Assembly (NCBI RefSeq): GCF_022347745.1
Contig: NZ_JAKRGC010000008.1
Coordinates: 26,630 to 50,629 of the forward strand
Reading direction: 5' to 3'
DNA: 24,000 nucleotides
DNA from: Streptomyces sp. OfavH-34-F
GTDB taxonomy: Bacteria; Actinomycetota; Actinomycetes; Streptomycetales; Streptomycetaceae
The translations under genes and the position numbers were made by a program. The notes beneath the pieces were generated by a model. The model worked only from the letters and a program-made list of their open reading frames with translations. It was not told the origin of the DNA and searched no databases. Below are positions 5,863 through 22,950 of the stretch, one piece after another (within the stretch, counting starts at the first letter, position 1; the number at the start of each line of letters is the position of its first letter).

Positions 5863-6208
5863 AGCCGCATGGGACCGGGGAGGCTGTCTCTTCGCGAGGC
5901 AGGGTTCCACTGGCGCCCCGGGGCGACTTTCGAGATCCCCTGGAGCTGCTTTCCACAGCCCCGACCGAGGGCCGACCACGCCACTGTTGAGCACGATACA
6001 CATTATGTGGTGCCTACACGTCGCATGTATGATGCACATAGACGCGGCCGCCTCCCCACCGACCACCCGGTGAACGGATCACCGCGTAAGCACGCACCCG
6101 CCCAGGGCCGCGCTCGCTCGCCCCGGGGCGCGATCCCCCGCTCCCTCGGGCCGTCGGCCGGGCGCCGCACACCTCACGGGCACCCGCCCATCAGCAAGGA
6201 GCACCACC

Positions 6209-7006
6209 ATGAACCGACTGCAGGACAAGGTCGCCGTCATCACCGGAGCCGGAAGCGGCATCGGCCGCGCCGCCGCGGTGCTGATGAGCAAGCAGGGCGC
6301 CCGTGTCGTCGTCGCCGACTACGACACCGAAGCGGCCCGGGAGACCGCCGATCTCGTCACCACGGCCGGCGGCACCGCCCTGGCGCTGACGGTGAACGTC
6401 CTCGAAGAGGACTCCATCGCCGCCATGATCGACACCACGGTCGAGGAATACGGCTCCCTGAACATCCTGTGCAACCACGTCGGCGGCACCAACCCCCGCG
6501 TCGACCTGGACCTGCTCCGCATGGACATGGCCGAGTTCGACCGGGCCGTCAGCCTCAACGTACGCAGCACGCTCGTCGGTTCGCGGCTCGCCATTCCGCA
6601 CATGATCGAGGCTGGCGGTGGCTCGATCATCAACACCGCCTCCGTCGCCGCGCTCGTCGGAGACGTCCTGCAGACCTCCTACGGGGCCGTGAAGGCGGCC
6701 GTCGTCAGCATCACCAAGTCCGTGGCCACCCAGTACGGTCCGAAAAACATCCGCTGCAACGCGATCGCCCCCGGCGCCGTGATGACCCCCGCCCTGGAGA
6801 ACAACCTCCCCCAGGAGGTCATCGACAGCCTCAAGGCCGGCAACGCGCTGCCCTACCTCGGCTCCCCCGAGGACATCGCCCACACCATGGTCTTCCTCGC
6901 CTCGGACGAGTCCCGCTACCTCACCGGCCAGCTCCTGGTCGTGGACGGCGGTATGACCATGCAGTCCTCGGCCGCGCCCGGGCGCCGGGCCATGCTCCCC
7001 GCGTGA
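6209..7006 (+). CDS. Short-chain dehydrogenase/reductase (SDR) family oxidoreductase
   Basis: TGAGSGIGRA cofactor motif, NTAS, and the YGAVKAA (YxxxK) catalytic motif. AAGGAG RBS upstream of ATG 6209. Confidence 0.9.
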   Translation: MNRLQDKVAVITGAGSGIGRAAAVLMSKQGARVVVADYDTEAARETADLVTTAGGTALALTVNVLEEDSIAAMIDTTVEEYGSLNILCNHVGGTNPRVDLDLLRMDMAEFDRAVSLNVRSTLVGSRLAIPHMIEAGGGSIINTASVAALVGDVLQTSYGAVKAAVVSITKSVATQYGPKNIRCNAIAPGAVMTPALENNLPQEVIDSLKAGNALPYLGSPEDIAHTMVFLASDESRYLTGQLLVVDGGMTMQSSAAPGRRAMLPA

Positions 7007-7827: not shown

Positions 7828-8814
7828 ATGAAGTCTGAGCCGGCCACCGCGCTTCGCCACCGCACCGTCGAAGCCCCTGCGGGCCGCCTGCACCTGGCGG
7901 AGCAGGGCACCGGCCCGCTGGTCGTGCTCGTCCACGGCTTCCCCGAGTCCTGGTACTCCTGGCGCCACCAGCTTCCGGCCCTCGCCGCTGCCGGATTCCG
8001 GGCGGTCGCGATCGACGTACGCGGCTACGGCCGCTCCTCCAAGCCCGCCGAGACCGACGCCTACCGCCTGCTCGACCTGGTCGAGGACAACGTCGCCGTC
8101 GTGCGCGCCCTCGATGAGGAGAGCGCGGTGATCGTCGGCCACGACTGGGGCTCCAACATCGCGGCCGCCTCCGCGCTCCTCCACCCCGAGGTCTTCCGCG
8201 CGGTCGGCCTGCTGAGCGTCCCGTACGCGCCGCCCGGCGGCCCTCGCCCCACCGACGTCTTCGGCCGGATCGGCGGCCCCGATCAGGAGTTCTACGTCTC
8301 CTACTTCCAGGAGCCCGGCCGCGCCGAGGCGGAGATCGAGCCCGACGTCAAGGGCTGGCTGGCGGGCTTCTACGCGGCCCTGTCCGCCGACACCATGCCG
8401 GCCGCCGACCAACCAGACCCGCACTTCGTCGCCCGGGGCGGCCGGCTGCGCGACCGTTTCCCGGCCGGGCGGCTCCCGGCCTGGCTGAGCGAGGAGGACC
8501 TCGACGTCTACGCCGGGGAGTTCGAGCGCACCGGCCTGACCGGCGCCCTCAACCGCTACCGCAACGTGGACCGCGACTGGGAGGACCTCGCTCCCCACTG
8601 CGGAGCCCCCGTCGAGCAGCCCGCTCTGTTCATCGGCGGTGCGCTGGACGCCTCCACCACCTGGATGGCCGACGCCATCGACGCCTTCCCCACCACCCTC
8701 CCCGCTCTGTCCGCCTCCCACCTCCTGGCCGGCTGCGGCCACTGGATCCAGCAGGAACGCCCCGCCGAGGTCAACCGCTTGCTGACCGACTGGCTCGCCA
8801 CCCTTCCGGGCTGA
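7828..8814 (+). CDS. Alpha/beta-fold epoxide hydrolase family protein
   Basis: HGFPESWYSWRHQ (HGxP oxyanion motif), VGHDWGS (nucleophile Asp elbow), C-terminal GCGHWIQQERP (His). ATG 7828 is preceded by GAGGAGAAG. The upstream part of ORF 7366..8814 is antisense to the regulator gene and is not counted. Confidence 0.9.
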   Translation: MKSEPATALRHRTVEAPAGRLHLAEQGTGPLVVLVHGFPESWYSWRHQLPALAAAGFRAVAIDVRGYGRSSKPAETDAYRLLDLVEDNVAVVRALDEESAVIVGHDWGSNIAAASALLHPEVFRAVGLLSVPYAPPGGPRPTDVFGRIGGPDQEFYVSYFQEPGRAEAEIEPDVKGWLAGFYAALSADTMPAADQPDPHFVARGGRLRDRFPAGRLPAWLSEEDLDVYAGEFERTGLTGALNRYRNVDRDWEDLAPHCGAPVEQPALFIGGALDASTTWMADAIDAFPTTLPALSASHLLAGCGHWIQQERPAEVNRLLTDWLATLPG

Positions 8815-8836
8815 ACCGGCGGACCGGGCGAGCGGA

Positions 8837-8864
8837 GGGCCCGGACGCTGCGGCGTCCGGGCCC
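8837..8864. terminator. Perfect GC hairpin between convergent genes
   Basis: GGGCCCGGACGC (8837-8848), loop TGCG, GCGTCCGGGCCC (8853-8864). It lies between the hydrolase stop (8814) and the methyltransferase stop (8882). Confidence 0.6.
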
Positions 8865-8881
8865 CACTCGGGACGGGTGGG

Positions 8882-9649
8882 TCAGCGCTCCATGAGAGCG
8901 AAGACGCCCCAGCCGAGGTACTCACGCCCGTAACGGGCGTACCGGGCCGGTTCGGTGGTGAGTTCCTCCCGTACGGCGGGGGCGAGTTCGTCGTCCGGGT
9001 TCTCGTCGAGCCAGCGGCGCATGCTGAGCCACTGGGCCGCGGCGTAACGGTCCCAGCTGTCCTGATCGGCCAGCATCATCTCCACGACGTCGCAGCCGAG
9101 TTCCTGGAACCGCTCGATGAGAGCGGGCAGGAGCAGGAAGTCGGCGACGGACGTGGCGTGGCACGCCTGGGCGGTCTCCTCGTCCGGCGGGGTCAGCCGC
9201 CAGAAGGGTTCACCGATCAACATCATGCCCCCGGGGCGGAGACTGCGCCGGAGCAGTTCGATCGTTCCGGCGACACCTCCGCCGATCCAGGTGGCGCCCA
9301 CGCAGGCCGCCAGGTCGACCGGCTGGTCGGCGACGTGGCCGGCGGCATCACCGTGAAGGAACTCGACCCGGTCGGCGACGCCGAGTTCGGCGGCGCGGCG
9401 GCGGGCCTGTTCGGTGAAGAGGGTGCTGATGTCGACCCCCGTGCCCGTGAAGCCCAGGTCGCGGGCCCAGGTGCACAGCATCTCGCCCGAGCCGCAGGCC
9501 AGGTCGAGCACCCGGGTTCCGGTGGGGAGGCGGAGGGATGCGCCCAGGGTGGCCAGCTTGTCCGCGGTCAGGGGGTTGTGGATCCGGTGTCCGCTCTCGC
9601 GGACGGTGAAGATGCGGGGAAGGTCCATGACCGTGTTCCTTTCCGTCAT
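8882..9649 (-). CDS. Class I SAM-dependent methyltransferase
   Basis: Motif I VLDLACGSGE, followed by GVDIS, FLHGD and LRPGGMMLI. ATG 9649 overlaps the rsgA stop (ATGA). An alternative ATG at 9628 is preceded by AAAGGA. The rest of ORF 8882..10600 is out-of-frame overlap with rsgA and is ignored. Confidence 0.85.
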   Translation of the reverse strand: MTERNTVMDLPRIFTVRESGHRIHNPLTADKLATLGASLRLPTGTRVLDLACGSGEMLCTWARDLGFTGTGVDISTLFTEQARRRAAELGVADRVEFLHGDAAGHVADQPVDLAACVGATWIGGGVAGTIELLRRSLRPGGMMLIGEPFWRLTPPDEETAQACHATSVADFLLLPALIERFQELGCDVVEMMLADQDSWDRYAAAQWLSMRRWLDENPDDELAPAVREELTTEPARYARYGREYLGWGVFALMER

Positions 9650-10764: not shown

Positions 10765-11053
10765 TGGAAGAGACCCTTGTGAGGGGCCTCGCCGGACATC
10801 AGACGTGCCGGAACCGCTCCCGCAGAGGGGAGACCGGCAGAGGAAAGGTCAGGCCGAGACCCGAGAGATGCGAACGAGTCGGGCACCGCACACAGCGGTG
10901 GTCACCACGACCGTCATCACGCATCTCCTCCGATCTCCGGGAGTGGCTCGGTCGCCACATCCGCAGAGACCGTAGCATCTCCGCGCGTTTGTGCGGCGGG
11001 CAGGTCGGAAAAGACCTGGCTCCGTTCCGGGGCGGCAGGGCAGGATCGCCGTC

Positions 11054-11671
11054 GTGATACGCCGTCCTCACGACGATGCCGAGTTGTCGGCCCTGGTCCG
11101 TCGTTATGTCACGCCCGAGCGGCGCTACTTGAAACTCGGCGGCGGCTTGCTGAACATGCGAGACCCCGACGGCGCGCGATTCGTGCGAGATCTCCGTGAG
11201 GATGCGGGACTCATCACCGCCGACGAGATCACCAGGCTTCTCGATGGCGGCTGGCGGGAGCGGAGAACCGCGGCGTGGCTCGTGGCCGTCTCCCGCCGGG
11301 CGGAGTTCCGTGAGCGCCTCGGAGAACTCCTGCTGGCGAGCGAGGTCTGCTGCGCCGGCCTCGCCTACAGCGTCGCCCTGGCCGGTTTCGGCACGGCGCG
11401 CGACGCCGATCTGCTCGCCGCCTACCTGGATCGGTACCTCCGCCGCCCCGACCTCGCGTACGACCAGCCCGTCGTCATGGGCGCTCTCCAGTTCGTCGAC
11501 CTGGACCTCGGAGGCAGCCGAGCGGACCGCTTCGCGGAGCCGGGGGGCCCGTGGCGGCAGTGGCTCCGGGAGGCACCACACATGAAGGACGGGGCGGACC
11601 CCGCCCCCTCCTTTCTGAGCCTCATCCGCCGGCTCTGCGCGTTCGTCGATGCATGCGCGGAGGTGCCGTGA
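11054..11671 (+). CDS. Conserved hypothetical protein (actinobacterial family; possibly DUF6000-like, from memory only)
   Basis: High GC3 across the ORF and no antisense competitor with motifs. Text: LVRRYVTPERRYLKLGGGLL...GGWRERRTAAWLVAVSRR...LLASEVCCAGLAYSVALAGFG. GTG 11054 has AGGA 7 nt upstream; the ORF track start 10991 is the alternative. Confidence 0.6.
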   Translation: MIRRPHDDAELSALVRRYVTPERRYLKLGGGLLNMRDPDGARFVRDLREDAGLITADEITRLLDGGWRERRTAAWLVAVSRRAEFRERLGELLLASEVCCAGLAYSVALAGFGTARDADLLAAYLDRYLRRPDLAYDQPVVMGALQFVDLDLGGSRADRFAEPGGPWRQWLREAPHMKDGADPAPSFLSLIRRLCAFVDACAEVP

Positions 11672-11785: not shown

Positions 11786-11814
11786 TTGTCAATATCCAGA
11801 ATCCTGTTTACTGT
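11786..11814 (+). promoter_or_regulatory. Sigma-70/HrdB-type promoter plus conserved AT-rich box upstream of yhfZ-like gene
   Basis: TTGTCA (11786-11791), 17-nt spacer, TACTGT (11809-11814, fits TAnnnT). 23 of 29 positions are identical to the box at 12819-12847. The GTG at 11822 is 7 nt past the -10 element, which suggests a leaderless mRNA. Confidence 0.5.
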
Positions 11815-11821
11815 TCTGATC

Positions 11822-12760
11822 GTGAACGCCTTCGACGACCGCTTCCTCACGCGCAACGGACTGGCCGCCCGCCAGCTCGCGGTCCTGCTGCTCAATCACG
11901 AGCCGGACACGCGGCTGCCCCGGGTGCGGGATTTCGCGGAGGAACTGGGCTGCGGGAACGGCACGGTCCAGGCGGCCCTGCAGTTGCTGGAGGAGTCCGG
12001 CGCCATCCGGACGACCGCCCGCGGGCACCTCGGCACCTTCCTCGCCCACTCGGACCGGTCCATACTCTGGCGGCTCTCCGGGCTCGGGACGCTGCTGGCC
12101 GCGATGCCCCTGCCGTACTCCCGCCGGTACGAGGGTCTGGCCACCGGGCTGCGCGGCGCCTTCGAGAAGGCGGGCGCGCCCTTCGCGATCACGTTCATGC
12201 GGGGCGCCGGGGCCCGTACCGCCGCCCTGCTCGAGGGCAAGGTCGACCTCGTCGTGCTGTCCCGGTTCGCCGCCGACGAGCTGATCGCCGAGCATCCGGT
12301 GGAGCTGGTGGCGGACCTGGGGCCGGCGACCTACGTGGGTGCGCACGGCATGCTCCTGCGCCACGGCGTGGACCTGGACACCCCGGGCCTGCGGGTCGCG
12401 GTCGACCACGCGTCGGAGGATCTGCGCAAGCTGGTCGACCTGGTCTTCGCCGGGCGCCCGGACGTCCGGCGGGTGGAGGCCTCGTACATGCAGCTGCCCG
12501 ACCTCTTCGCCCGCGAGGAGGTCGACGCCACCGTCTGGAACCTGGACGAGGTGCAGGACCGGCTCGGATTCGGCGTGGACGTGCTCCCCCTGGGGGACGA
12601 GGTCACCCGCGAACTGTCGCTGCGTAACTCCAGCGCGGCCGTCATCGGCCGTACCGAAGGCGCCAAGGCCCTGGCCGCGGTCCGCGACTCCCTGGATCTC
12701 CCGCTGATCACCTCACTCCAGCACGAGGTGATCGAGGGCACGCGCCTGCCCTCCTACTGA
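11822..12760 (+). CDS. yhfZ: YhfZ-family regulator (N-terminal GntR-like winged HTH + C-terminal periplasmic-binding-protein-like domain)
   Basis: wHTH text: RLPRVRDFAEELGCGNGTVQAALQLLEESGAIRTTARGHLGTFL. It is followed by AAMPLPYSRRYEGLATGL, which I recall as characteristic of E. coli YhfZ. I prefer start GTG 11822 because TTG 11786 (ORF track) would place the promoter-like box inside the coding sequence. Confidence 0.8.
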   Translation: MNAFDDRFLTRNGLAARQLAVLLLNHEPDTRLPRVRDFAEELGCGNGTVQAALQLLEESGAIRTTARGHLGTFLAHSDRSILWRLSGLGTLLAAMPLPYSRRYEGLATGLRGAFEKAGAPFAITFMRGAGARTAALLEGKVDLVVLSRFAADELIAEHPVELVADLGPATYVGAHGMLLRHGVDLDTPGLRVAVDHASEDLRKLVDLVFAGRPDVRRVEASYMQLPDLFAREEVDATVWNLDEVQDRLGFGVDVLPLGDEVTRELSLRNSSAAVIGRTEGAKALAAVRDSLDLPLITSLQHEVIEGTRLPSY

Positions 12761-12772
12761 GCCGCAGGCGAG

Positions 12773-12819
12773 GCGGCCGGAACAGGACGAAAGTCCTGCC
12801 GCCACGGGACCTTCGGTCC
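12773..12819 (+). terminator. Tandem hairpins after yhfZ-like gene
   Basis: CAGGAC-GAAA-GTCCTG (12783-12798, GNRA tetraloop), flanked by GGCGG (12773-12777) / CCGCC (12799-12803). Then GGACC-TTC-GGTCC (12807-12819). It begins 13 nt after the stop and ends at the next promoter box. Confidence 0.45.
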
Positions 12820-12860
12820 TCTCAAAATACAAAATCCTGGTTACTGTCTATTTTAGGAGG
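12819..12860 (+). promoter_or_regulatory. Second copy of the AT-rich box, with -10 element and RBS, upstream of yhfY-like gene
   Basis: CTCTCAaaatacaaaatcctggtTACTGT (12819-12847) aligns with 11786-11814; the core AATCCTGnTTACTGT is shared. The -35 position is weak (CTCTCA). AGGAGG at 12855-12860 lies 6 nt before ATG 12867. Confidence 0.5.
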
Positions 12861-12866: not shown

Positions 12867-13253
12867 ATGGACGACCAGCTGGCCCTGCGGATTCAGCTCT
12901 TCCGCGAAGGCGGACAGATCAAGCCCGAGGTCGCCGACTTCGTCGCGGCCGAACTGGCCGCCCTCGAAGCGGAGGGCCGCACCGTGACCGAGGCGACGGC
13001 GGGCATGCTCACCAGCCACCTGATGATGGCGCTCACCCGGCTCCTGGACGGCGAGGCCATCGAGCAGTTCCTCACCGACGACCAGGTCGCCGCCGAACTG
13101 GCCGGACACCCCGAGGCCGTCGCCCGCGCCCGCGAGGTCGCCGAACGCGCCCGGCGGGACCTGGGGGCGGCCCTCCCCGAGTCCGAGGTGAACTTCCTCG
13201 GCATGCACCTCGCGGTGCTGGCGCAGCAGACCCCCGCCGCCCCCTCCTCCTGA
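12867..13253 (+). CDS. yhfY: Stand-alone PRD-domain protein (YhfY family)
   Basis: 128 aa, all-helical text with two His residues in PRD-like contexts: MLTSHLMMALTRL (His51, nt 13017-13019) and FLGMHLAVLAQ (His114, nt 13206-13208). Strong RBS, high GC3. Confidence 0.8.
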   Translation: MDDQLALRIQLFREGGQIKPEVADFVAAELAALEAEGRTVTEATAGMLTSHLMMALTRLLDGEAIEQFLTDDQVAAELAGHPEAVARAREVAERARRDLGAALPESEVNFLGMHLAVLAQQTPAAPSS

Positions 13254-13311
13254 ACCACCCCGTCCCCCGGACCGGCCCGGCCGGCCCGAACCACCAGGAA
13301 AGAAGCAGGAC

Positions 13312-13668
13312 ATGACGAAGATCCTCGCCGGCGGCGTCGGCAAGACCGAGGTCACCGCCACCATCAAGCAGCTCGGCATCGAAGGGCTGGAGGTCACCGC
13401 CTCCAGCGACATGGACGCCGCGATGAAGCTGCGCGTCGGCCAGGCCGACTACTACCTGGGCACCTGCCACACGGGCGCCGGTGCCTCGCTCGGCGTCCTC
13501 GTCGGCCTGATGGGCAGCGCCGTCTGCCACACCTTCGGCCGCAACGTCCCCACCGAGGAGCAGATCACCGCCCTGCTGGACGAGGGCAAGAAGGTCTTCG
13601 GCTTCTCGATGGACCAGATCGACACCATCGCTCCCCTCATGGCGCGCGCCATCGCCGCCCGCGGCTGA
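13312..13668 (+). CDS. yhfU: DUF2620-family protein (YhfU family)
   Basis: 118 aa. SSDMDAAMKLRVGQADYYLGTCHTGAGASLGV matches my memory of E. coli YhfU (NDMEAAMKVKSGQLDYYIGACNTGAGAAL). Ends GKKVFGFS... Confidence 0.8.
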   Translation: MTKILAGGVGKTEVTATIKQLGIEGLEVTASSDMDAAMKLRVGQADYYLGTCHTGAGASLGVLVGLMGSAVCHTFGRNVPTEEQITALLDEGKKVFGFSMDQIDTIAPLMARAIAARG

Positions 13669-13713
13669 CCCAGCCCCCCTCTCCGATCATCCCGGGCACG
13701 AAGGAGTGACCCC

Positions 13714-15051
13714 GTGAGTACGACACTCGCAGCCGGTACGAGCCTCGACTTCTCGCTGGCCCAGCAACTGACCGTCATAGCCCTCTGTGCGCTGACCGCG
13801 TACATCGCTCACATGGCGCTGGCCGTCTTCAACGACGGCGTACGCCCGTTCCTCCTGGACTTCATCCAGGGGCGCACCACGCGCAGCGCGACGACGGCGG
13901 TCTCGTTCGGCCTCTCGGCCGGGTTCATCTTCGGGCTCGGCGCCCCGATGGCCCTGTCCACCGGTGTGCTGAACCCGTGGCTCCTCTTCCTGCCCACCGA
14001 CATCCTCGGCATGCTGTCGCCGAAGAAGTGGCTCGCGCCGATCCTCGGCGGCGCCTGGGGCGCGGTCGTCGTCTTCGGGCTCAACGGGGCCAACAACGTG
14101 GCCCACGACCTGCCGGTCGACTTCATCACCGCCATGCAGCAGATGTCGACCCCGATCCTCTTCCTCTTCACGCTGTTCCCCGTGCTGGCCATCACCAAGC
14201 AGTTCGGCCGCAAGTGGGGCGGCCTCGCGGGGCTGCTGGAGTTCGCCCTGGTCGTCATGACCATGAAGCTGTGGCCCAATATGTTCGCCGGCGCGCTGGC
14301 GATGGCCGTCGGCGTGCTGATGCTCATCGGCCTCGCCGTCGCCAAGGACCTCGGCCGGCGCAAGGCGGACAGGGCCGCGGGTGTGAGCGAACCCGTCGTC
14401 GAGGGCGACGACCCGATGGCCTCCCTCTTCAGCGCCAGCGCGGCCCGGCTGCGCCGGTACCTGCCCCTGTTCATGGTGCTGGGCGCCGGAGTGTGTGTGC
14501 TCGCCCAGATGCACATATTCGGCGGCGGCGAGGCGACCAGCTTCCTGATCGCGAAGGGGCAGTACTCCGAGGCGGCGCAGGTCGACTTCTACCGCGTCTT
14601 CGGCTTCATCCCGCTGATCGCGACCACCGCGCTGGCCTCCGGCGCGTACGGCATCGCGGGCTTCACCCTCGTGTACCCCATCGGCTACCTGATGCCGAAC
14701 CCGTTCCTCGCCGCGATCGTCGGTGCCCTGGTCTTCGCGGTCGAGGTGCTGGCCCTGTCCTACATCGGCAAGCTCCTCGGACGGCTGCCCAGCGTCCGCG
14801 ACTCCTCCGAGCACCTGCGCAGCGCGATCAGCGAGACGCTCCAGCTGGCCATCCTCTTCGGCTCGCTGATGGCGGCCAACGCCATGGGCGGCGGCCTGGG
14901 CATCCTCGTCGTCGGCGGGCTCTACCTGCTGAACGAGGCGATGGGCCGGCCGGTCGTCCGGATGGCCGCGGCACCGGCCGCGGTGATCGTCGGCGGCATC
15001 CTCCTCAACCTCCTGTACTGGCTGGACCTGTTCACCCCGCTCAAGGGGTGA
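13714..15051 (+). CDS. yhfT: YhfT-family polytopic membrane protein (putative transporter)
   Basis: 445 aa, many hydrophobic spans. Shared strings with E. coli YhfT as I recall it: LLFLPTDILG, GFIPLIATTALASG, YLMPNPF, LPSVRDSS, LLNEAMGRPV, GGILLNLLYWL. GTG 13714 is preceded by GAAGGAG. Confidence 0.85.
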   Translation: MSTTLAAGTSLDFSLAQQLTVIALCALTAYIAHMALAVFNDGVRPFLLDFIQGRTTRSATTAVSFGLSAGFIFGLGAPMALSTGVLNPWLLFLPTDILGMLSPKKWLAPILGGAWGAVVVFGLNGANNVAHDLPVDFITAMQQMSTPILFLFTLFPVLAITKQFGRKWGGLAGLLEFALVVMTMKLWPNMFAGALAMAVGVLMLIGLAVAKDLGRRKADRAAGVSEPVVEGDDPMASLFSASAARLRRYLPLFMVLGAGVCVLAQMHIFGGGEATSFLIAKGQYSEAAQVDFYRVFGFIPLIATTALASGAYGIAGFTLVYPIGYLMPNPFLAAIVGALVFAVEVLALSYIGKLLGRLPSVRDSSEHLRSAISETLQLAILFGSLMAANAMGGGLGILVVGGLYLLNEAMGRPVVRMAAAPAAVIVGGILLNLLYWLDLFTPLKG

Positions 15052-15107: not shown

Positions 15108-16058
15108 ATGAACAGCCCCGCACCCGTGCTGCGTACCGTCCTCGGAGACATCGCCCCCGACGCGGTGCACGGCCCCGCCCTGGCCCACGAACACCTCGTC
15201 CTCGACCTCGACCACCGGGGTGACGGCGGCGCTGTCCTCGACGGCCGGCACACCGCCGCCGTCACCGCCGAACTGGCCGCGCTCCGCGAGGAGTACGGAC
15301 TCGCCCTCGTCGTCGAGCTGACCTGCCGCGGCATGGGCCGCGACGTGCGCACCCTGGCCCGGATCTCCCGGGACGCCCAGGTCGCCGTCGTCGCCGCGAC
15401 CGGCTGGTACTACGAGCCGTTCCACACCCCCGAGATCGAGCGCGGCGACGTCGCGGACCTCACCGCCGCGCTCGTCCGCGAGATCGAGGACGGCATCGGG
15501 ACCACGGGTGTCCGCCCCGGCGTCCTCGGCGAGATCGGCAGCCACGGGGACACCCCGGCGCCGGCGGAGAGCAAGGTGCTCCGCGCCTCGGCGCGGGCCG
15601 CCCTCGCCACCGGGCTCTCCGTCGCCACCCACGCCCAGCTCGGCCGCGGCGGCCTCGCCCAGCTGGAACTGCTCACCGGCGAGGGGCTGCCTCCGCACCG
15701 GATCTCGGTCGGCCATCAGGACCTGCTGGACGACCCGGCGGTCCATCGGGAGCTGGCCGCGAGCGGCGCGTACGTCGCCTTCGACACCGTCGGCAAGGAC
15801 GGCTACCAGAGCGACGAGACCCGGCTGCGCCTCCTGCTCGCCCTCCTGGAAGCAGGACACGCCGACCGGGCCCTGCTCAGCTGCGACATCTCCCGCCACG
15901 GCTACCTCGCCTCCGAGGGGGGCCAGGGCTACGGCCACCTCTTCGGGAGCTTCCTGCCCAAGGTCCGTGCGGCGGGCGTGGACGACGACCTGATCGACCT
16001 GCTGACCCGCCGCAACCCGCTGCGCTTCCTCAGCGGCACGGCCGTGGAAGAGAGCTGA
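15108..16058 (+). CDS. php: Phosphotriesterase-homology protein (amidohydrolase superfamily, PTE/Php family)
   Basis: Binuclear-metal ligand set in order: ALAHEHL (HxH), GEIGS (bridging Glu, as in E. coli Php), ATHAQ (His), VGHQD (His), SCDIS (Asp). ATG 15108 is preceded by GAGAAGGA. The 5' part of ORF 13977..16058 is an out-of-frame overlap with yhfT. Confidence 0.9.
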   Translation: MNSPAPVLRTVLGDIAPDAVHGPALAHEHLVLDLDHRGDGGAVLDGRHTAAVTAELAALREEYGLALVVELTCRGMGRDVRTLARISRDAQVAVVAATGWYYEPFHTPEIERGDVADLTAALVREIEDGIGTTGVRPGVLGEIGSHGDTPAPAESKVLRASARAALATGLSVATHAQLGRGGLAQLELLTGEGLPPHRISVGHQDLLDDPAVHRELAASGAYVAFDTVGKDGYQSDETRLRLLLALLEAGHADRALLSCDISRHGYLASEGGQGYGHLFGSFLPKVRAAGVDDDLIDLLTRRNPLRFLSGTAVEES

Positions 16059-16060: not shown

Positions 16061-17176
16061 ATGCACCCCGTACTCCCCGAGACGTTCCCGCTGCCGACCG
16101 TGGCCCCGGCTGACGCCGTCGCCCGGCAGTTCCGGCTCATCGAGGCCACCGCCCGCCACTTCGAGGGCCCGCAGCTGTTCGCCTCCGACGCCGGGGTCGT
16201 GCCCGGCCTGGGGCGTCCCGCCACCACCGCCCGGGTGGAGGCCGTGCTCGCCGACTTCTTCGGCGCCGAGGACGCCGCGTTCGTCCAGGGCGCGGGCACC
16301 GGCGCGATCCGGGCGGCCCTCGCCGCCGCCGTCCGCCCCGGCGCCCCCCTCCTCATCCACCGGGCTCCGGTCTACCGCACCACCGAGGTCACGCTGCGCG
16401 GCCTCGGAGTCCGGACCGCCGAAACCGACTTCAACGATCCCGGCGCGCTCCGCGAGGCCCTGGAGTCCGGCCGGTTCCGCTGGGCCTACGTCCAGCACAC
16501 CCGGCAGCGGCTCGCCGACTCCTACGACCCCGGCGCGGTCCTCTCCGCCTGCCGGGCCGCCGGCGTCCGCACCGTCGTCGACGACAACTACGCCGTGATG
16601 CGCACTCCGGCCGCCGGGGTCGAACTGGGCGCCGACGCCTCCTGCTTCTCCCTGTTCAAGCTGCACGGCCCGGAGGGCGTCGGCATCGTCGTCGGCGCCC
16701 GCGACCTGATCGAGCACATCCGCCGCGACAACTACTCCGGCGGCGGCCAGGTCCAGGGGCACCAGGCGCTCGACGCGCTGCGCGCGCTCACCCACGTACC
16801 GCTCATGTGGTCCGTGCAGTCGCAGGTCGGCACCGAGGTCGCCGAGCGGCTGAACGCGGGCGAGGTGCCCGGTGTCGCCGAGGTCCGGCTCGCCAACGCG
16901 CAGGACCGGTGCCTGCTCGTCCGGCTCGACCGGCCCGTCGCCCGGGAACTGCCCGCCGTCGCCGCCCGCTTCGGCGCGGCCCCCTACCCCGTCGGCTCGA
17001 ACTCCCGCTACGAGATCACGCCGCTCTTCTACCGGATGTCCAGCTCCACCCTGGACGACTCCCCCGAACTGGCCGACTGGACCGTGCGCATCAACCCGAT
17101 GCGGGCGGGCGCGGACCTCGTCATCGAGATCCTGCGCCGCTCACTGGCCGCGCTGAACGACCCGAAGGACCGCTGA
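16061..17176 (+). CDS. yhfS: YhfS-family PLP-dependent enzyme (fold type I, aminotransferase/C-S lyase-like)
   Basis: VQGAGTGAIRAAL, DDNYAVM, FSLFKLHGPEGVGIVVG (probable PLP lysine) and YSGGGQVQG parallel E. coli YhfS. The start is 2 nt after the php stop (TGAccATG). Confidence 0.85.
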   Translation: MHPVLPETFPLPTVAPADAVARQFRLIEATARHFEGPQLFASDAGVVPGLGRPATTARVEAVLADFFGAEDAAFVQGAGTGAIRAALAAAVRPGAPLLIHRAPVYRTTEVTLRGLGVRTAETDFNDPGALREALESGRFRWAYVQHTRQRLADSYDPGAVLSACRAAGVRTVVDDNYAVMRTPAAGVELGADASCFSLFKLHGPEGVGIVVGARDLIEHIRRDNYSGGGQVQGHQALDALRALTHVPLMWSVQSQVGTEVAERLNAGEVPGVAEVRLANAQDRCLLVRLDRPVARELPAVAARFGAAPYPVGSNSRYEITPLFYRMSSSTLDDSPELADWTVRINPMRAGADLVIEILRRSLAALNDPKDR

Positions 17177-17178: not shown

Positions 17179-18345
17179 GTGTTTCTCGACACCGTCCTGA
17201 CCCGTAATCCCGGTCTCGTCGAGGCCGCGGCGGCACTCCACGACCAGGGCGCGATCCCGCCGGACACCTATGTGATGGACCTGGACGCCGTCGAGGCCAA
17301 CGCCGCGCTGCTGGCCGCCGAGGCCGAACGGCTGGGCCTGTCCCTCTGGTTCGTCGTCAAGCAGCTGGGCCGCAACCCCGAACTGATCCGGGCCGTCGCC
17401 CGGCACATCCCCCGCTACGCCGCCATCGACCCGCCCGAGGCCCGCACCCTGCACGCCTCCGGCGCCCGGGCCGGCAACCTCGGCCACCTCGTCCAGATCC
17501 CGCGCCGCGCACTGCCCGAGATGCTGGCGTGGCGGCCCGAGACCGTCACCGTGTACGACCTCGACAACGCCCGCGCGGTCTCCGACGCCGCGAGCCGGCT
17601 GGGGTTCGTCCAGGACGTCCTGATCCGTCTCGAAGGCGCCGAGGGAAGCGTCTACCCCGGCCAGGAGGGCGGCGTCCCGCTCGGCCGGCTCGACGCCTTC
17701 GCCGACGCGGCCGAGCGGCTGCCCGGCGTCCGCATCGCGGGAGTCACCGCGTTCCCGTGCGTGCTGTGCGACCCGGCGACCGGGGCCCCGTACGCCACCC
17801 CCAACTTCGCGCTCGCCCTCAAGGCCCGCGAGCTGCTCGCCGGGCGCGGCCACGCGGACCTCCGACTGAGCGCCCCGAGTGCCACCTCGATGGCCTCCCT
17901 GCCGCTGCTCGCCGAGCTCGGCGCCACCCACGGCGAGCCGGGCCACGCCCTCACCGGCACGACCCCGCTGCACGCGCTCGACCCCTCACAGCCCGAGACC
18001 CCCGCCTACGTGTACGTCACCGAGGTGGCCCACACCCTGGGCGACGGCCGGCCAGCCGTCTTCGGCGGCGGCTTCTACGCCCGCTCCCACATCAGGAGCG
18101 CCCTGCTGCCACGCACCGGGGCACGGCTGGACGTGCTCGACGCGCCCGCCGAGAACATCGACTACTACCGGCTGCTCGACGCGCCCGCCCCCGGACAGGA
18201 CGTCCGCCTCGGCGACACCGCGCTGCTCGCCTTCCGCACCCAGATCTTCGTCACCCGCTCGACCGTCGCCGTCGTCTCCGGACTCTCGTCCGGTACGCCC
18301 CGTCTCAACGGTCTGTACGACGCCCAGGGCCGGTCCCTGAGCTGA
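17179..18345 (+). CDS. yhfX: YhfX-family PLP-dependent enzyme (fold type III, alanine-racemase N-terminal domain-like)
   Basis: VFLDTVLTRNPGL..., YVMDLDAV, VVKQLGRNPEL (probable PLP lysine), GHLVQIP, APSATS, HGEPGHALTGT and FRTQIFVTRS parallel E. coli YhfX. GTG start is 2 nt after the yhfS stop (TGAccGTG). Confidence 0.85.
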   Translation: MFLDTVLTRNPGLVEAAAALHDQGAIPPDTYVMDLDAVEANAALLAAEAERLGLSLWFVVKQLGRNPELIRAVARHIPRYAAIDPPEARTLHASGARAGNLGHLVQIPRRALPEMLAWRPETVTVYDLDNARAVSDAASRLGFVQDVLIRLEGAEGSVYPGQEGGVPLGRLDAFADAAERLPGVRIAGVTAFPCVLCDPATGAPYATPNFALALKARELLAGRGHADLRLSAPSATSMASLPLLAELGATHGEPGHALTGTTPLHALDPSQPETPAYVYVTEVAHTLGDGRPAVFGGGFYARSHIRSALLPRTGARLDVLDAPAENIDYYRLLDAPAPGQDVRLGDTALLAFRTQIFVTRSTVAVVSGLSSGTPRLNGLYDAQGRSLS

Positions 18346-18356: not shown

Positions 18357-19598
18357 ATGGCCAAGACCGTCATCGTCGTGATCGACGGATTCGGCATCGG
18401 CGCCATGCCCGACGCGGGCACCGCGCGTCCCGGCGATCCGACCGCCGACACCTGCGGACATGTGCTGGACCACTGCCGGGAGGCGTTCGGCCGCCCGTTG
18501 CGCCTGCCCGTGCTGGGTTCGCTCGGCCTCGGCCTCGTCCACCCGCACCCCGATCTCGCCCGGCGCACCCATCTGCCCGTCGCCGCCGGCCGGGCCGCCC
18601 TCGGCTATCCGGGCGCCGACACGTTCGCCGGCCACCAGACGATGATGGGGGCCGACTTCAGCCGGGTGACCGTCGCCCGGCTCGCCGACCACATCGACGA
18701 GGTGACCGCCGCGCTCGAAGCGGCCGGTCACCGGGTCGGCCGGCTGGACGGCGCGCCGCTCCTGGTCGTCGACGGCTCGGTGCTGGTCCACGACAACCTG
18801 GAGGCGGACCCGGGCATCAACTGGAACGCCTCGGGGCGGCTGGAGGACCTGCCGTTCGACGGGCCGGACGGCATCCTCGCCGTGGCCCGCACCGTACGCG
18901 CCGTCGCTCCCGTGGCGCGGGTCATCGCGGTGGGCGGACACGCGGACGGTCCGCTGGAGCACTACGTACGGGCCGGTGAGGAGGGCACGGTCGGCCTCGA
19001 CACCCCGGCGACCGGTTTCTACCGCAACGGCGGCCTCGAAGTGCAGCACCTGGGCGCCCGGATCGACCACACCCGCCAGCTGCCCGACCTGGCCGCCCGC
19101 GCGGGCGTTCCGGTGACCCTGGTGGGCAAGGCCGCCGACATCCTGGCCTGCGACGCGGCGGCCCGTCACCCGGCCGTGGACACCGCCGAGGTCCTCACCC
19201 ACACCCTTGAGGCGGTGCGCGCCGCCGGGGACGGCCTGGTCGTCGCCAACATCCAGGAGACGGACCTGGCCGGGCACCAGCAGGACACCGAGCGCTACGG
19301 ACGTCTCCTGGAACAGACCGACGCGGGCCTGGCCGCGCTCGTCGCCCTGCTCGACGCCCCGGGCGACCGCCTCATCGTGACCGGCGACCACGGCAACGAC
19401 CCCACGGCCGGGCACGCCTTCCACACCCGCGAGTACGTCCCCGTGCTCATCCACCGGCCCGACGCGGAGGGCGTGGAGCTGCTTCCCGACGCGGAGAGCC
19501 TCGCGGACGTCGGTGCGACGGCGGCCGTGTCCCTGTCGCTGGACCCGCGGGGCCTGGCCAACGGCCGGGAACTGCGGACGGGCCGGCGGGCTGCCTAG
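18357..19598 (+). CDS. yhfW: YhfW-family phosphopentomutase-like metalloenzyme (alkaline-phosphatase superfamily)
   Basis: VVIDGFGIGAMPD, NIQETDLAGHQQD, and VTGDHGNDPTAGHAFHTREYVPVL (metal-binding motifs of the DeoB/phosphomutase family). GAGGAGG RBS at 18344-18350. Confidence 0.85.
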   Translation: MAKTVIVVIDGFGIGAMPDAGTARPGDPTADTCGHVLDHCREAFGRPLRLPVLGSLGLGLVHPHPDLARRTHLPVAAGRAALGYPGADTFAGHQTMMGADFSRVTVARLADHIDEVTAALEAAGHRVGRLDGAPLLVVDGSVLVHDNLEADPGINWNASGRLEDLPFDGPDGILAVARTVRAVAPVARVIAVGGHADGPLEHYVRAGEEGTVGLDTPATGFYRNGGLEVQHLGARIDHTRQLPDLAARAGVPVTLVGKAADILACDAAARHPAVDTAEVLTHTLEAVRAAGDGLVVANIQETDLAGHQQDTERYGRLLEQTDAGLAALVALLDAPGDRLIVTGDHGNDPTAGHAFHTREYVPVLIHRPDAEGVELLPDAESLADVGATAAVSLSLDPRGLANGRELRTGRRAA

Positions 19599-19717
19599 GG
19601 GGTGTCTCTTTGATGGGCTGGTCAGTTGATCGGATGTGTCTGTCCGATTGGTGATCACCGATGCGATGTGGGACCGGATCGAACCGTTGCTGCCGGCCGA
19701 TCCGGCCCGTGGACGAT
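19599..19717 (+). mobile_element. 5' fragment of an IS5-family (DUF4096-type N-terminus) insertion sequence
   Basis: GTG 19651 opens VITDAMWDRIEPLLPADPARGR, the stereotyped N-terminus of IS5/IS427-group transposases. It is lost after about 22 codons, where it meets the 3' end of the IS630 gene. A candidate terminal sequence, GGGGGTGTCTC, begins at 19599, directly after the yhfW stop. Confidence 0.55.
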
Positions 19718-20755
19718 GTGGTCGGCGTGGTCGGTGCCGTCGAGGGTGAAGTAGCGCAGGGCGGTGAACTGGGCCTCGATCCGGTTCAGCCAGGAGGAGT
19801 TGGTCGGGGTGTAGGCGATCTCCACGTTGTTCGCCGCCGCCCACGTCGCGACCCGCCGGCATCGCTTCGTGGTCAGGTGCGGGGAGAAGCTATCGCAGAC
19901 GATCGCGATCCGCACCGCCGGAGGGTAGAGGGTGCGCAGGTAGCGGCAGAACTCCAGGAACTGCGTGCGCCGCTTGAGCGGTTTGATGTGGCCGTAGAGC
20001 TTGTCCTTGCCCAGGTCCAGGGCTGCAAACAGGTGCCGCACCCCGCCGTAACGGTTGTAGGTTGCCCGGCGCCGGCGGCGGGGCTCACGGTCGGGGTCCT
20101 TGTGTCTGCCGCCGTGCTCGGTCCACTGCCGCCCGGGGTGCGGCATCAGGTTGAGCGGCCCGAACTCGTCCATGCAGAAAACGGCTTCGGGCTCGCCTTC
20201 CTCAGCTATGACCTCACCGTCGGCGATCGCGTAGAGATGCTCGACGCGGGCCTTCTTGGGCGCGTAGTCCGGATCGCGGGAGGTCTTCCAGGTCTTCAGA
20301 CGTTGAAAGGAGACGCCCTCCTTGCGGAGCAGAAGGCGCAGGCCCTCGTGGCTGATGTCGTCGACCACCCCCTCGGCGACCAGGAAGTCGGCCAGCTTGG
20401 CCAGGCTCCAGGTCGAGAACGGCAGATCATGCTCGGTCGGCTTGGACTTGGCGATCTTCTTGATCTCGCGGCGCTCGGGCAGCGTGAAGGTCTTCGGCCG
20501 GCCGCCGGAGTACTTGGGGTAGAGCGAGCCGAAACCGTCGGCGTTGAAGTTGTGGATCACGTCGCGGACCCGGTCGTCACTGGTGAACGACAGCTCGGCG
20601 ATCTTCACGACCGGCATGCCCTGGGCGGACAGCAGCACCATCTGCGCGCGCCGCCAGGTCACCACGGAACCCGCGCCTCTGCGGACTATCCGCAGTAACC
20701 GCCGGCCCTCGTCGTCATCGATCTCGCGGATACGCACTCGTTCTGCCACCCGCAT
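19655..20755 (-). CDS. IS630-family DDE transposase, native C-terminus truncated/replaced
   Basis: From ATG 20755: MRVAERVRIREIDDDEGRRLL..., HTH regions, then DDE contexts CMDEFGPLNL, IVCDSFSPH, NSSWLNRIEAQF. After ...DGTDHADH the last ~20 codons (IVHGPDRPAATVRSGPTSHR) are the reverse-strand reading of the IS5-like fragment, so the normal tail is missing. The ORF-track extension to 20992 is rejected. Confidence 0.85.
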   Translation of the reverse strand: MRVAERVRIREIDDDEGRRLLRIVRRGAGSVVTWRRAQMVLLSAQGMPVVKIAELSFTSDDRVRDVIHNFNADGFGSLYPKYSGGRPKTFTLPERREIKKIAKSKPTEHDLPFSTWSLAKLADFLVAEGVVDDISHEGLRLLLRKEGVSFQRLKTWKTSRDPDYAPKKARVEHLYAIADGEVIAEEGEPEAVFCMDEFGPLNLMPHPGRQWTEHGGRHKDPDREPRRRRRATYNRYGGVRHLFAALDLGKDKLYGHIKPLKRRTQFLEFCRYLRTLYPPAVRIAIVCDSFSPHLTTKRCRRVATWAAANNVEIAYTPTNSSWLNRIEAQFTALRYFTLDGTDHADHIVHGPDRPAATVRSGPTSHR

Positions 20756-20789
20756 AGCCTGGCGGCCCGATGCCGCTGGAACGCGGTGT

Positions 20790-21155
20790 TCAGGAGGAGT
20801 CGTTGGAATCGGCCGCGAGCGTCTTGCCCTCGACACCTGACCGGGGGACGCCGTCGACCGCCACACAGATACCGAAGACACGATCATGGCCGGTCCAGCC
20901 GTTGACGCGGCCACGGTTGTTGCTGATCTGCACCCGCTTCCTGGCAGGGTCCACAGACGACACCAAGTGCAAGTAGACCGTCCCGGCAACACGGGCGAGG
21001 ACGATGTCCCCTACCTCCAACTTCGCTGGGTCGACCGGAGCGACGACCACCTGCTGCCGACTGCGTATCAGCGGAACCATCGAGGAGCCGCTGGGCCGGA
21101 ACGCCACGGTGGCCCCACCAACAACCCTGCCTGCCACTGCATCCAATGCGCCCAT
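20790..21155 (-). CDS. Small S24/S26 (LexA/signal-peptidase)-fold-like protein
   Basis: 121 aa. FRPSGSSMVPLIRSRQQVVVAPVDPAKLEVGDIVLARV follows the G-x-S-M-x-P...GD-h-V pattern of S24/S26 peptidases. Codon GC3 is lower than in the core genes. No clear RBS. Confidence 0.45.
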   Translation of the reverse strand: MGALDAVAGRVVGGATVAFRPSGSSMVPLIRSRQQVVVAPVDPAKLEVGDIVLARVAGTVYLHLVSSVDPARKRVQISNNRGRVNGWTGHDRVFGICVAVDGVPRSGVEGKTLAADSNDSS

Positions 21156-21319
21156 CCGGTGATCGTGGCAGATTCCCCTACATCAACCCACCGATTTACT
21201 TCTCACCCTCCATCAGCAAGGCGAACGTTGCCTGACGCGGCACTAGCCATCGCCTACCAGGCCGCACTCCACGTCGCGTCCATCCTTCTCTGGGCGCGGC
21301 AGTGACATGACTACGGAAG

Positions 21320-21775
21320 CTACAGGCCCAAGCTTGAGACGAAGCTTGAGAATGTAGGTGCTACGACCCGCCACTGGCACAGAAGTGGGTCCGTCCAGAA
21401 GTCACTGCCGACGATGCGGGGATCTGAGGGGTCAGTTCGGTAGTCGAGAGCCAAGGCGCCGTCATCACCGGGGTTGCGAGTGGTGGCGATCAGCACTGCC
21501 TGGTCAACATCAAGCCAAGGAAGTTCGAGCGGGGTAACGCTTCTGCGTCCGCGTGCCTGGCGAAAGAAGGCGGAGTGCGGATCATCGGCGAACATGTCCA
21601 TCGATTGGGACGCGTACGCCATCTGCTCGGGGTTCGACACGAAGCCAAGTGAGTCCTTGAACCACGGAATGGCCTTCGCCAGCACCACATCGCCCGGGTG
21701 ACGCCAGAGGTCGCGATCGATGAGCGACGTCAGCAGGGCGGGCAGAGCAAGTCCACGGACTATCGAAGGCTCCAT
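21320..21775 (-). CDS. SUKH/SMI1-KNR4-like (immunity-protein-type) hypothetical protein
   Basis: 151 aa. LPALLTSLI...W, the central ...AVLIATTRNPGDDGALALDYR..., and the C-terminal WRVVAPTFSSFVSSLGL resemble the SMI1/KNR4 (SUKH) pattern as I remember it. Assignment is by pattern only. Confidence 0.45.
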   Translation of the reverse strand: MEPSIVRGLALPALLTSLIDRDLWRHPGDVVLAKAIPWFKDSLGFVSNPEQMAYASQSMDMFADDPHSAFFRQARGRRSVTPLELPWLDVDQAVLIATTRNPGDDGALALDYRTDPSDPRIVGSDFWTDPLLCQWRVVAPTFSSFVSSLGL

Positions 21776-21942
21776 GGCGCACAGCTTCGCACGGCGGACA
21801 GCACCAAGGAGACACGCTCTAGTCGTTCGGGCGGTTTCCGAGTCCGCTGCGGAGATGCCCGGGGGGACCTGCGCGTGTCGCCCGACCGGCCGTCCGCACG
21901 GGGGTTTTGCAGGGCATGCCGAGCCGGACGACCGGTTGCCGG

Positions 21943-22224
21943 TCAGCTCGTGCCGGCGTCCTCGTTCCGAGACGGGGGCTCATCGCGGCGCTCCGGGGCG
22001 GGACGGTAGCGGCCCATGCTTCCCATGATCAGAACGGCTCCCAGGGGCCCCATCCCGTAGAGCAGGGGAACATCCCTGCCGAACCTGGTGATGAGGAAGG
22101 CCAACGCTGCGAGGGCAAGAACCAAAAGGGGGCGCCTGACAACGTGCCGGCTGATGATGGCCAGTCGGCGCCGCACTCCCCGCGCCTCGGTGAGGCGCAC
22201 CCAGGCCGAAGATGACATGACCAC
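21943..22224 (-). CDS. Small hypothetical membrane protein (two predicted TM segments)
   Basis: 93 aa. Hydrophobic spans PLLVLALAALAFLITRF and LLYGMGPLGAVLIMGSMG. Codon usage is acceptable for the lower-GC islet. No homology recognised. Confidence 0.35.
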   Translation of the reverse strand: MVMSSSAWVRLTEARGVRRRLAIISRHVVRRPLLVLALAALAFLITRFGRDVPLLYGMGPLGAVLIMGSMGRYRPAPERRDEPPSRNEDAGTS

Positions 22225-22598
22225 AGCTTAGTTTGCCCAGCAGGCGCGACGCCGTTGGCCGCCGGCCGCACCTCGATGTCGCTGTCGCCGGGCCGCGTGG
22301 CCCGGTGACACTCCCGCACCGTGCCTCGCGCTACCTGGCGCTCTGACCGCATGGGTGGGCCTGACCAGCGAGATCACCGACCGGGCCCGGAAGGGCAACC
22401 GGGACGGCCGCCCCCCTGGATGGACATAGAGGGCAAACGCGGCGGGCGCACCACTGCGCTGCGGCTGCTGGGAGGTGGGCTTCGCGGCGACCGGTTCGGC
22501 GAGCAAAGCATCCGGCACGTACGGCAAAGTCGCGACTCCCCGAAGAGCCTATGGTCCGTCAGCGACGTACCAACAGACGGGATCGGACGGGAACACGG

Positions 22599-22796
22599 AT
22601 GCGCATCTCCACACGCCGGGCCATCAGAAACGTTGGCTCGGTCGCCACCGCGACGGCCGCCCCGCTCGGCGCCAGCATGTTCGCCGCCCCTGCGTCCTCC
22701 GCGTCGGCCGGCGGCGGAGCGTACGGCTCCTACACAGGCCGCGCCATCAAGTTCCCCTACTTCACGCCGACCGGCGCGTTCTACACGTGTCGGTGA
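22599..22796 (+). CDS. Small secreted Gly/Tyr/Phe-rich peptide (hypothetical)
   Basis: ATG 22599 gives MRISTRRAIRNVGSVATATAAPLGASMFAAPASSASA (signal peptide with an AxA site) followed by GGGAYGSYTGRAIKFPYFTPTGAFYTCR. Weak RBS. It could instead be a decayed gene fragment. Confidence 0.3.
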   Translation: MRISTRRAIRNVGSVATATAAPLGASMFAAPASSASAGGGAYGSYTGRAIKFPYFTPTGAFYTCR

Positions 22797-22950
22797 CCGG
22801 CGGCAGGCACAACGGCTTCGCCGGACCCTCCAGGTTCCAGGACTGTCGAAGGCTGCGCCGGCAGCCGACACCATGATCGTCCCGGGCGACCGCGCCTCGT
22901 CCGCACCGCTGAGTCATATTCGCTGTTTCCCCTCACTCAGGAGGTCCTAC

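Follow-up and report, generated by a model that had tools for sequence, protein, structure and literature searches.

What do the three genes that follow yhfZ in the yhf operon, a putative sugar/amino-acid catabolic operon, do together? They encode a stand-alone PRD protein (YhfY), a small soluble protein of family DUF2620 with a conserved cysteine loop (YhfU) and a polytopic membrane protein (YhfT), and the question is raised here by positions 12867-15051 of a 24,000-nucleotide stretch of DNA from Streptomyces sp. OfavH-34-F (contig NZ_JAKRGC010000008.1), the whole of which is referred to below as the window. A first-pass annotation made from the letters of this DNA had proposed that the trio forms a cryptic uptake module resembling the phosphotransferase system (PTS), with YhfU as a phospho-carrier similar to Enzyme IIB (EIIB), YhfT as the permease and YhfY as a phospho-sensor. 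We propose, tentatively and at somewhat less than an even chance, that the YhfY-YhfU-YhfT module couples the PTS to the import of a substrate and to its first phosphorylation; the phosphotransfer steps, the transport through YhfT and the nature of the substrate are all things that we infer. The idea of a PTS-like module is plausible, and it now stands on better evidence than the loop resemblance from which it arose: it is supported by an operon link to HPr and Enzyme I in three loci (L082, L103 and L104) and by the conservation of Cys52 in YhfU and of His51 in YhfY, while the supposed EIIB likeness of YhfU has fallen away.

In the relay that we envisage, phosphoryl groups would pass from phosphoenolpyruvate to Enzyme I and HPr, from HPr to His51 of YhfY, from there to Cys52 of YhfU and finally to the substrate. 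YhfY would thus serve as an EIIA-like carrier, YhfU as an EIIB-like carrier and YhfT as the permease, and the substrate would be phosphorylated during its passage through YhfT or just afterwards. YhfU would be a shortened relative of the RpiB/LacAB isomerases in which the anion-binding loop Cys-x-Thr-Gly-x-Gly is all that remains, the phosphate-binding and ring-opening residues of genuine isomerases having been lost. A PTS relay of this kind, with the substrate as its final acceptor, would explain three observations at once, namely a near-invariant cysteine loop tied to a PRD, the presence of HPr and Enzyme I in operons devoid of a canonical Enzyme II (EII), and the absence of a kinase. A functional precedent is offered by DhaKLM, in which substrate phosphorylation is likewise driven by Enzyme I and HPr by way of unusual non-EII carriers and does not involve group translocation; the two systems are not homologous, however, and Dha employs an EIIA(Man)-like domain and bound ADP rather than a PRD or a cysteine protein.

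The link to the general PTS proteins comes from a marine high-GC clade. In L082, L103 and L104 the DUF2620 and PRD coding regions are followed by the genes for YhfW, YhfX, HPr and Enzyme I, in that order, and the active-site motifs of the last two are intact in the clade (GLHARP in HPr, TSHAAI in Enzyme I). L082 and L104 encode DUF2620 and PRD as a single 267-residue fusion protein (P0297), identical in four metagenome samples, with yhfT just upstream and a gene for a KDPG-type aldolase after Enzyme I. In L103 the two genes are adjacent and separate, the position of yhfT runs off the contig end and an HAD hydrolase gene on the opposite strand comes after Enzyme I; in L101 and L102 the DUF2620 and PRD genes overlap. 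No canonical EIIA, EIIB or EIIC was seen in L082, L103 or L104 (from precomputed Pfam matches for L082 and a partial scan of the open reading frames (ORFs) of L103 and L104). Nor is there a kinase gene in any of the operons that were read, among them those of the window, Escherichia coli, Cetobacterium, Bacillus thuringiensis and L086, and yet these operons encode a phosphopentomutase-like enzyme, joined in L082 and L104 by the aldolase already mentioned.

The first carrier of the proposed relay would be YhfY. Its gene (12867-13253, + strand, ATG start) encodes 128 residues, of which residues 47-116 match the Pfam PRD family (PF00874) at 24.6 bits against a cut-off of 23, and its top matches in the PDB are PRD1 of GlcT (3rio) and LicT (1tlv). 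His51 and His114, 63 residues apart, align with the two conserved histidines of these PRD1 domains (tsHl/LTDHI and gmHl/IALHI), and no DNA- or RNA-binding domain was found in YhfY with Pfam or NCBIfam, which bears out the original description of a stand-alone PRD. Four positions, His51, Ala55, Arg58 and Glu107, are invariant in 13/13 diverse homologues. YhfY shares its PRD fold signature with the PRD regulators LicT/GlcT and MtlR/LicR/LevR: the context of His51 and Arg58 is that of LicT His100, and a second histidine usually occurs in the context of LicT His159. Unlike these regulators, YhfY is a single PRD rather than two, about 125 residues long, without a CAT domain or helix-turn-helix (HTH), and either stands alone or is fused to DUF2620. 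PRDs are phosphorylation targets of HPr and EIIB, and in BglG/BglF the exchange of phosphoryl groups between a PRD histidine and the EIIB cysteine is reversible. The role of phospho-sensor that had been assigned to YhfY is only one option, since operons that carry HPr and Enzyme I without an EIIA fit an EIIA-like PRD carrier equally well.

The second carrier would be YhfU, encoded by a gene at 13312-13668 (+ strand, ATG start) whose 118-residue product matches DUF2620 (PF10941) at 140.6 bits, far above the cut-off of 25. Its loop C52-H-T-G-A-G-A-S59 lies at 13465-13488 on the + strand (codons TGC CAC ACG GGC GCC GGT GCC TCG). DUF2620 is a small family, as an exhaustive search with HMMER through 1.84 billion cluster representatives recovered only 100 DUF2620 clusters. 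Cys52 is kept in 63/64 of the full-length representatives from which our conservation counts were taken, as the first-pass annotation had expected, and it is flanked by residues that are conserved to a similar degree: Gly50, [TS]54 and Gly55 in 64/64, Gly57 in 59/64 and, further upstream, Asp33 in 60/64. Conservation across the family argues that the loop motif is more than chance. The signature that had been read from the single sequence, C-x2-G-x3-S, requires revision, because position 59 is alanine in 52/64 and Ser59 is no family trait; the family motif is D-Y-Y-x-G-x-C-x-[TS]-G-x-G-G-[AS]-L, with C-x-[TS]-G-x-G at its core. The sole full-length member without the cysteine, P0305, has phenylalanine in its place (G-A-F-H-S-G-I-G) and may be a decayed or re-purposed copy.

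An AlphaFold2 (AF2) model of YhfU built from a 52-sequence alignment (predicted local distance difference test, pLDDT, 94.6; predicted template modelling score, pTM, 0.89) comprises five beta-alpha units, in which strand 3 (residues 47-52) ends with Cys52 and gives way to a loop of five residues and a helix (58-67); the loop of strand 1 reads G-G-V-G-K and has no cysteine. An EIIB-like phospho-carrier had been proposed, with the cysteine loop likened to the phosphocysteine loop of lactose/cellobiose-type EIIB proteins such as ChbB. Foldseek against the PDB places RpiB ribose-5-phosphate isomerases at ranks 1-4 instead (5ifz chains A and B, 6fxl and 3s5p; template modelling (TM) scores 0.61-0.64, E 1.7e-4 to 1.2e-3, probability 1.00), followed by generic flavodoxin and CheY-like domains, and no PTS EIIB occurs among the top 50 matches. 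Profile comparisons give the same ranking. With hhalign, DUF2620 aligns to a three-sequence RpiB profile at 84.5% probability (P = 7e-6, YhfU residues 1-61), pairing Cys52 with RpiB Cys66 and [TS]54 with RpiB T68, and to UlaB/GatB/ChbB at 0.5% (P = 0.13). When the DUF2620 profile is searched against the PDB, 5/7 best matches are RpiB-type isomerases (E about 0.3), with the Cys, Thr and Gly of the loop falling on the RpiB C-G-T-G-x-G and the F-G of strand 5 aligned as well. In a Pfam cross-match test on 46 DUF2620 members, six gave weak matches to LacAB_rpiB (PF02502; best E = 0.0088, below the curated threshold, with none for the YhfU of the window) and none matched PTS_IIB (PF02302) at E <= 10. 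The structural analogy with ChbB is wrong.

There are nonetheless likenesses that made the analogy attractive. YhfU and the EIIB proteins of the Lac/Chb/Gat/Asc type (PF02302; ChbB, GatB, UlaB) are both small cytoplasmic alpha/beta proteins in which a cysteine at the end of a strand leads through a Gly/Ser/Thr-rich loop into a helix, and the text of the YhfU loop resembles C-G-N-G-Q-G-S-S of UlaB and C-S-A-G-M-S-T-S of ChbB; the yhfU gene lies beside that of a polytopic membrane protein and, in some loci, is linked to HPr and Enzyme I. The differences concern topology: the cysteine follows strand 3 in YhfU (residue 52) and strand 1 in EIIB (residues 9-10), and the YhfU model has five strands as opposed to the four of EIIB. 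A circular permutation of EIIB, considered as a way of accounting for the position of Cys52, was rejected by reasoning from the order of the strands. YhfU belongs to the RpiB/LacAB superfamily as a remote and shortened member; it is neither a member of family PF02502 nor an EIIB homologue. By membership, then, YhfY is a PRD protein, YhfU a DUF2620 protein within the RpiB superfamily and YhfT the representative of a family of its own, and none of the three belongs to a PTS EII family.

Membership of the superfamily does not make YhfU a typical isomerase. It shares with RpiB/LacAB (PF02502; E. coli RpiB, 1NN4) the alpha/beta fold and the C-x-T-G-x-G loop after strand 3, and DUF2620 also keeps the Asp that precedes helix 2 and the F/L-G of strand 5. 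It is, however, shorter (118 residues as opposed to 149 in RpiB and about 150 in RpiB/LacAB proteins), ends some 18 residues past strand 5 without the RpiB C-terminal helix, and has a gap in the hhalign alignment where RpiB carries C8-D9-H10-V11 of strand 1; DUF2620 is also always accompanied by a PRD protein and a membrane protein, as the isomerases are not. In RpiB, the C-terminal segment that YhfU lacks carries the phosphate-binding Arg/His residues. Because the strand-1 residues are deleted and this segment is absent, YhfU is atypical as an isomerase, and nothing of the active site remains beyond the Cys, Thr and glycine loop. In the model, the succession of strand end, Gly-rich turn and helix N-terminus around Cys52 is an anion-binding arrangement. 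By analogy with RpiB it could stabilise an enediolate, and by analogy with EIIB and phosphatases a thiophosphate. CheY-like receivers, too, bear their phospho-acceptor (phospho-Asp) at this position, the end of strand 3 in a 2-1-3-4-5 sheet, and for this reason structure alone cannot choose between catalysis and phospho-carriage.

It is at this point that the first alternative has to be weighed. YhfU may be a small isomerase or epimerase of the RpiB/LacAB type acting on a sugar or sugar acid, with Cys52 as the base and Thr54 as proton shuttle; YhfT would then be a secondary transporter, and YhfY a regulator of expression or activity that is phosphorylated by HPr at His51. Each of the RpiB matches described above speaks in its favour, from the four leading structures and the hhalign pairing of Cys52 with Cys66 to the aligned catalytic loop of the PDB sequence matches and the weak LacAB_rpiB hits, and the neighbouring mutase, PTE-family hydrolase and pyridoxal phosphate (PLP) enzymes suggest a sugar-phosphate chemistry in which an isomerase would fit. 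The same reading has to accommodate the deletion of RpiB C8-D9-H10-V11 in DUF2620 and the loss of the C-terminal helix with its phosphate-binding Arg/His cluster. It also lacks a known precedent for an isomerase that is fused to, or translationally coupled with, a PRD, and it leaves both the kinase gap and the operon-borne HPr and Enzyme I unexplained. We judge it rather unlikely.

The distribution of the trio bears on a second alternative. A scan of genome contigs with YhfT returned 80 loci, all of them from Streptomyces, and the wider diversity considered here was drawn from encoding contigs, a plasmid collection and one metagenome scan. In this material PRD, DUF2620 and YhfT occur together in Actinobacteria, Proteobacteria, Fusobacteria and Bacillota despite rearrangement of the genes around them, and the suggestion that the trio behaves as one unit is thereby upheld across four phyla. 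E. coli K-12 has the same eight families as the Streptomyces operon in another order (yhfZ-yhfY-yhfX-yhfW-php-yhfU-yhfT-yhfS). Using the terminal letters of the yhf names, the order is Z-Y-U-T, amidase, php, S, X, W in Cetobacterium somerae (Fusobacteria), Y-U-T-php-S-X on a Bacillus thuringiensis plasmid, with no YhfZ annotated adjacent, Z-Y-T-U-S-X-W in the metagenomic loci L086 and L087, and Z-Y-php-U-T-X-W in L088 from the metagenome-assembled genome GCA_054051265.1. In Lactobacillus rhamnosus the three trio proteins have consecutive accession numbers (PMC7513527). The regulators that accompany the trio vary, being YhfZ, a GntR/UTRA protein or none annotated adjacent. Three apparent fusions were not accepted: P0375 (YhfU-YhfT) is an E. 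coli sequence with a 1-nucleotide frameshift and was rejected, and P0260 (Php-YhfU) and P0275 (YhfU-YhfT) look like frameshift-type artefacts and were set aside.

Some accessory genes near these clusters deserve mention. The amidase-family gene of the Cetobacterium operon (L099 10294-11325) and three ATP-grasp genes of the L-amino-acid-ligase-like type after the B. thuringiensis cluster (L100 14142-18702) hint that the substrate contains an amide or an amino-acid linkage. Close to the yhf-type operon of L086 there is a fructosamine-kinase gene (8710-9561), and in E. coli the fructoselysine (frl) operon directly adjoins yhfS (L001 1-4784); this proximity may be coincidence or may point to glycated or amino-sugar substrates.

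According to the second alternative, YhfY and YhfU would be purely regulatory, representing the PRD and EIIB-like cysteine part of an MtlR/LicR-type regulator split into two proteins, which would sense the PTS state and the activity of the transporter and signal to YhfZ or the GntR/UTRA protein without any phosphorylation of a substrate. A PRD joined to a cysteine-containing alpha/beta domain is a known architecture of PRD activators, YhfY itself lacks a domain for binding DNA or RNA, and in most loci a dedicated regulator gene adjoins the pair. A short contig (L091, 1-2820), which carries genes for an SBP_bac_5 binding protein and an ABC permease after the PRD-DUF2620 pair, in place of YhfT, is likewise in line with a regulatory function; if this locus is real, the pair can serve a different transporter class, and the contig is too short to show whether yhfT lies upstream. 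The regulators found with the pair are unrelated in type, however, and in B. thuringiensis none is annotated adjacent; the YhfU domain is not EIIB(Gat)-like; and neither the absence of a kinase nor the presence of HPr and Enzyme I in operons of a clade with no canonical EII nearby is explained. We regard this alternative as improbable. A role of YhfY as an RNA antiterminator was discarded in view of the absence of a CAT domain, of any Rfam match in the window and of a terminator-like signal between yhfZ and yhfY.

YhfT would be the membrane component of the proposed PTS relay. The yhfT gene (13714-15051, + strand, GTG start) encodes 445 residues that match Pfam YhfT (PF10797) at 512.1 bits against a cut-off of 26.1, and the protein shows 40% identity to its E. 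coli counterpart over 438 aligned positions. It contains at least 10 hydrophobic segments, and its two halves are weakly co-linear (residues 17-174 with 249-401, hhalign P = 0.001), which suggests a two-repeat architecture such as would suit a transporter. YhfT is presumed to be a permease. Alignment to UlaA and ChbC with hhalign gave 0.1%, and an AF2 model from 12 sequences (Streptomyces and E. coli relatives) was discarded (pLDDT 42.5, pTM 0.30).

A second, apparently parallel system also speaks for the relay. In the cross-match test 9/46 DUF2620 members also matched PF14272, SFCGS (Gly_rich_SFCGS; best E = 8.4e-6). In Enterococcus faecium the SFCGS gene occupies the place in which EII genes would be expected, with DUF4312, DUF4311, DUF4310, a DgaE-family lyase and a KDGP aldolase as its neighbours (PMC11934601). 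The substrate of DgaE, D-glucosaminate-6-phosphate, is a PTS product (DgaABCD) in Salmonella, and in the DgaABCD-DgaE-DgaF pathway an amino sugar acid that the PTS has phosphorylated is processed by a PLP lyase and a KDPG-type aldolase (PMC9529869). Judged from the Pfam cross-matches and the gene map of one paper, SFCGS appears to be a sister family of DUF2620 with a parallel pattern. The yhf operons differ from the Dga and SFCGS clusters in using YhfS, YhfX, YhfW and Php, and in having one membrane protein rather than two. A tblastn search of plasmids for the SFCGS/DUF4311/DUF4310 cluster matched only DUF2620 genes. The half-repeat of YhfT is reminiscent of DUF4311 and DUF4310, which are two distinct membrane proteins, and no similarity of YhfT to either was detected. 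The probable yhf substrate is an amino sugar acid, a lactone or a related compound. Taken further, YhfY, YhfU and YhfT together with SFCGS, DUF4312, DUF4311 and DUF4310 would constitute an unrecognised family of PTS Enzymes II assembled from unrelated parts, with a PRD as histidine carrier, an RpiB-fold protein as cysteine carrier (phospho-Cys after strand 3) and a new type of EIIC, a proposition that we consider doubtful.

Several observations weigh against a PTS relay ending on the substrate. We know of no precedent for a PRD acting as an EIIA-like carrier. Operon-borne HPr and Enzyme I were encountered in one clade only (two lineages, three loci), and a Pfam scan of 24 ORFs of the window, covering the operon and both flanks, revealed no EIIA, EIIB, EIIC, HPr or Enzyme I, in agreement with the first-pass annotation as far as the EII components are concerned. 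Both histidines of YhfY had been put forward for conservation, and His51 is universal in our sample; His114 is not, being histidine in 10/13 homologues and asparagine in 3/13 (E. coli, Cetobacterium and L088). DUF2620 lacks any PTS_IIB match, as described above, and the Cys-x-Thr pair of YhfU coincides exactly with the catalytic dyad of RpiB, such that a role as an isomerase explains its conservation equally well. Five diverse YhfT proteins matched neither EIIC nor any other transporter family at E <= 10, and the layout of L091 is easier to reconcile with a regulatory or soluble role than with group translocation. Finally, a literature search on yhfS/T/U/W/X/Y/Z, DUF2620 and SFCGS found no functional study or experiment.

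Within the window the trio forms part of an eight-gene cluster on the + strand with the order Z-Y-U-T-php-S-X-W, and the positions originally given for yhfY, yhfU, yhfT and the cysteine loop are all exact. The surroundings are high in GC, the closest relatives of the proteins (95-100% identity) come from Streptomyces spp., and a nucleotide comparison of the window with E. coli gave no match. The cluster is headed by a yhfZ-like regulator gene (11786-12760, +) encoding a GntR-type HTH and a YhfZ_C domain (Pfam YhfZ_C 190.5 bits, HTH_41; NCBIfam YhfZ_full 336 bits, cut-off 260). Downstream of yhfT follow php (yhfV; 15108-16058, +), a member of the phosphotriesterase family in the amidohydrolase superfamily (Pfam PTE 205 bits); yhfS (16061-17176, +), a fold-type I PLP enzyme (Pfam YhfS-like_C 148 bits, Aminotran_5); yhfX (17179-18345, +, GTG start), an alanine racemase-like PLP enzyme of fold type III (Pfam Ala_racemase_N, YhfX-like_C); and yhfW (18357-19598, +), a phosphopentomutase-like metalloenzyme (NCBIfam PRK12383 446.5 bits, cut-off 254; Pfam Metalloenzyme).

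The gap between yhfZ and yhfY contains an AT-rich box, CTCAAAATACAAAATCCTGGTTACTGTCT, directly 5' of yhfY (12821-12849, +), which is kept in divergent Streptomyces loci while its flanks vary. The box stands in a genome of about 72% GC, and in relatives it includes the palindrome CCAG/CTGG; it probably serves as an operator for YhfZ or as a promoter. No promoter or terminator signals were called in the gap. The box is preceded by two short hairpins (12783-12820), rich in GC and with loops of the GAAA and UUCG type, which are not kept in the other aligned Streptomyces loci.

Beyond the cluster, a gene for a DDE_3-type transposase (DDE superfamily endonuclease; 19658-20992, - strand) lies directly downstream of yhfW, and the GC content falls to 0.64-0.69 past it (20000-24000); the yhf operon may mark one edge of a segment that is mobile or was acquired recently. 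On the other side, a DUF6000 gene (247 bits; 10991-11671) separates an RsgA GTPase gene from yhfZ. Further upstream, an HAD hydrolase gene, possibly for a beta-phosphoglucomutase, overlaps a GH65 glycoside phosphorylase gene (2531-5817) in an arrangement that resembles a maltose/trehalose phosphorylase pair and is followed by an SDR gene (6074-7006); this group is apparently unrelated to the yhf cluster.

The yhf operon is a conserved cluster of E. coli K-12, present in four phyla, that is still without a function, and RefSeq labels all eight of its E. coli products as putative or uncharacterised. Two of the results reported here hold even if YhfU is an isomerase: the link between DUF2620 and the RpiB superfamily, and the presence of HPr and Enzyme I inside some yhf operons. 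If the trio does form a PTS relay, E. coli K-12 would possess an overlooked PTS and, with it, a new family of Enzymes II in a system that is thought to be fully catalogued in this organism. The PRD would then be an element of the relay and not only a regulatory target, and an isomerase fold would have been recruited as a phospho-carrier.

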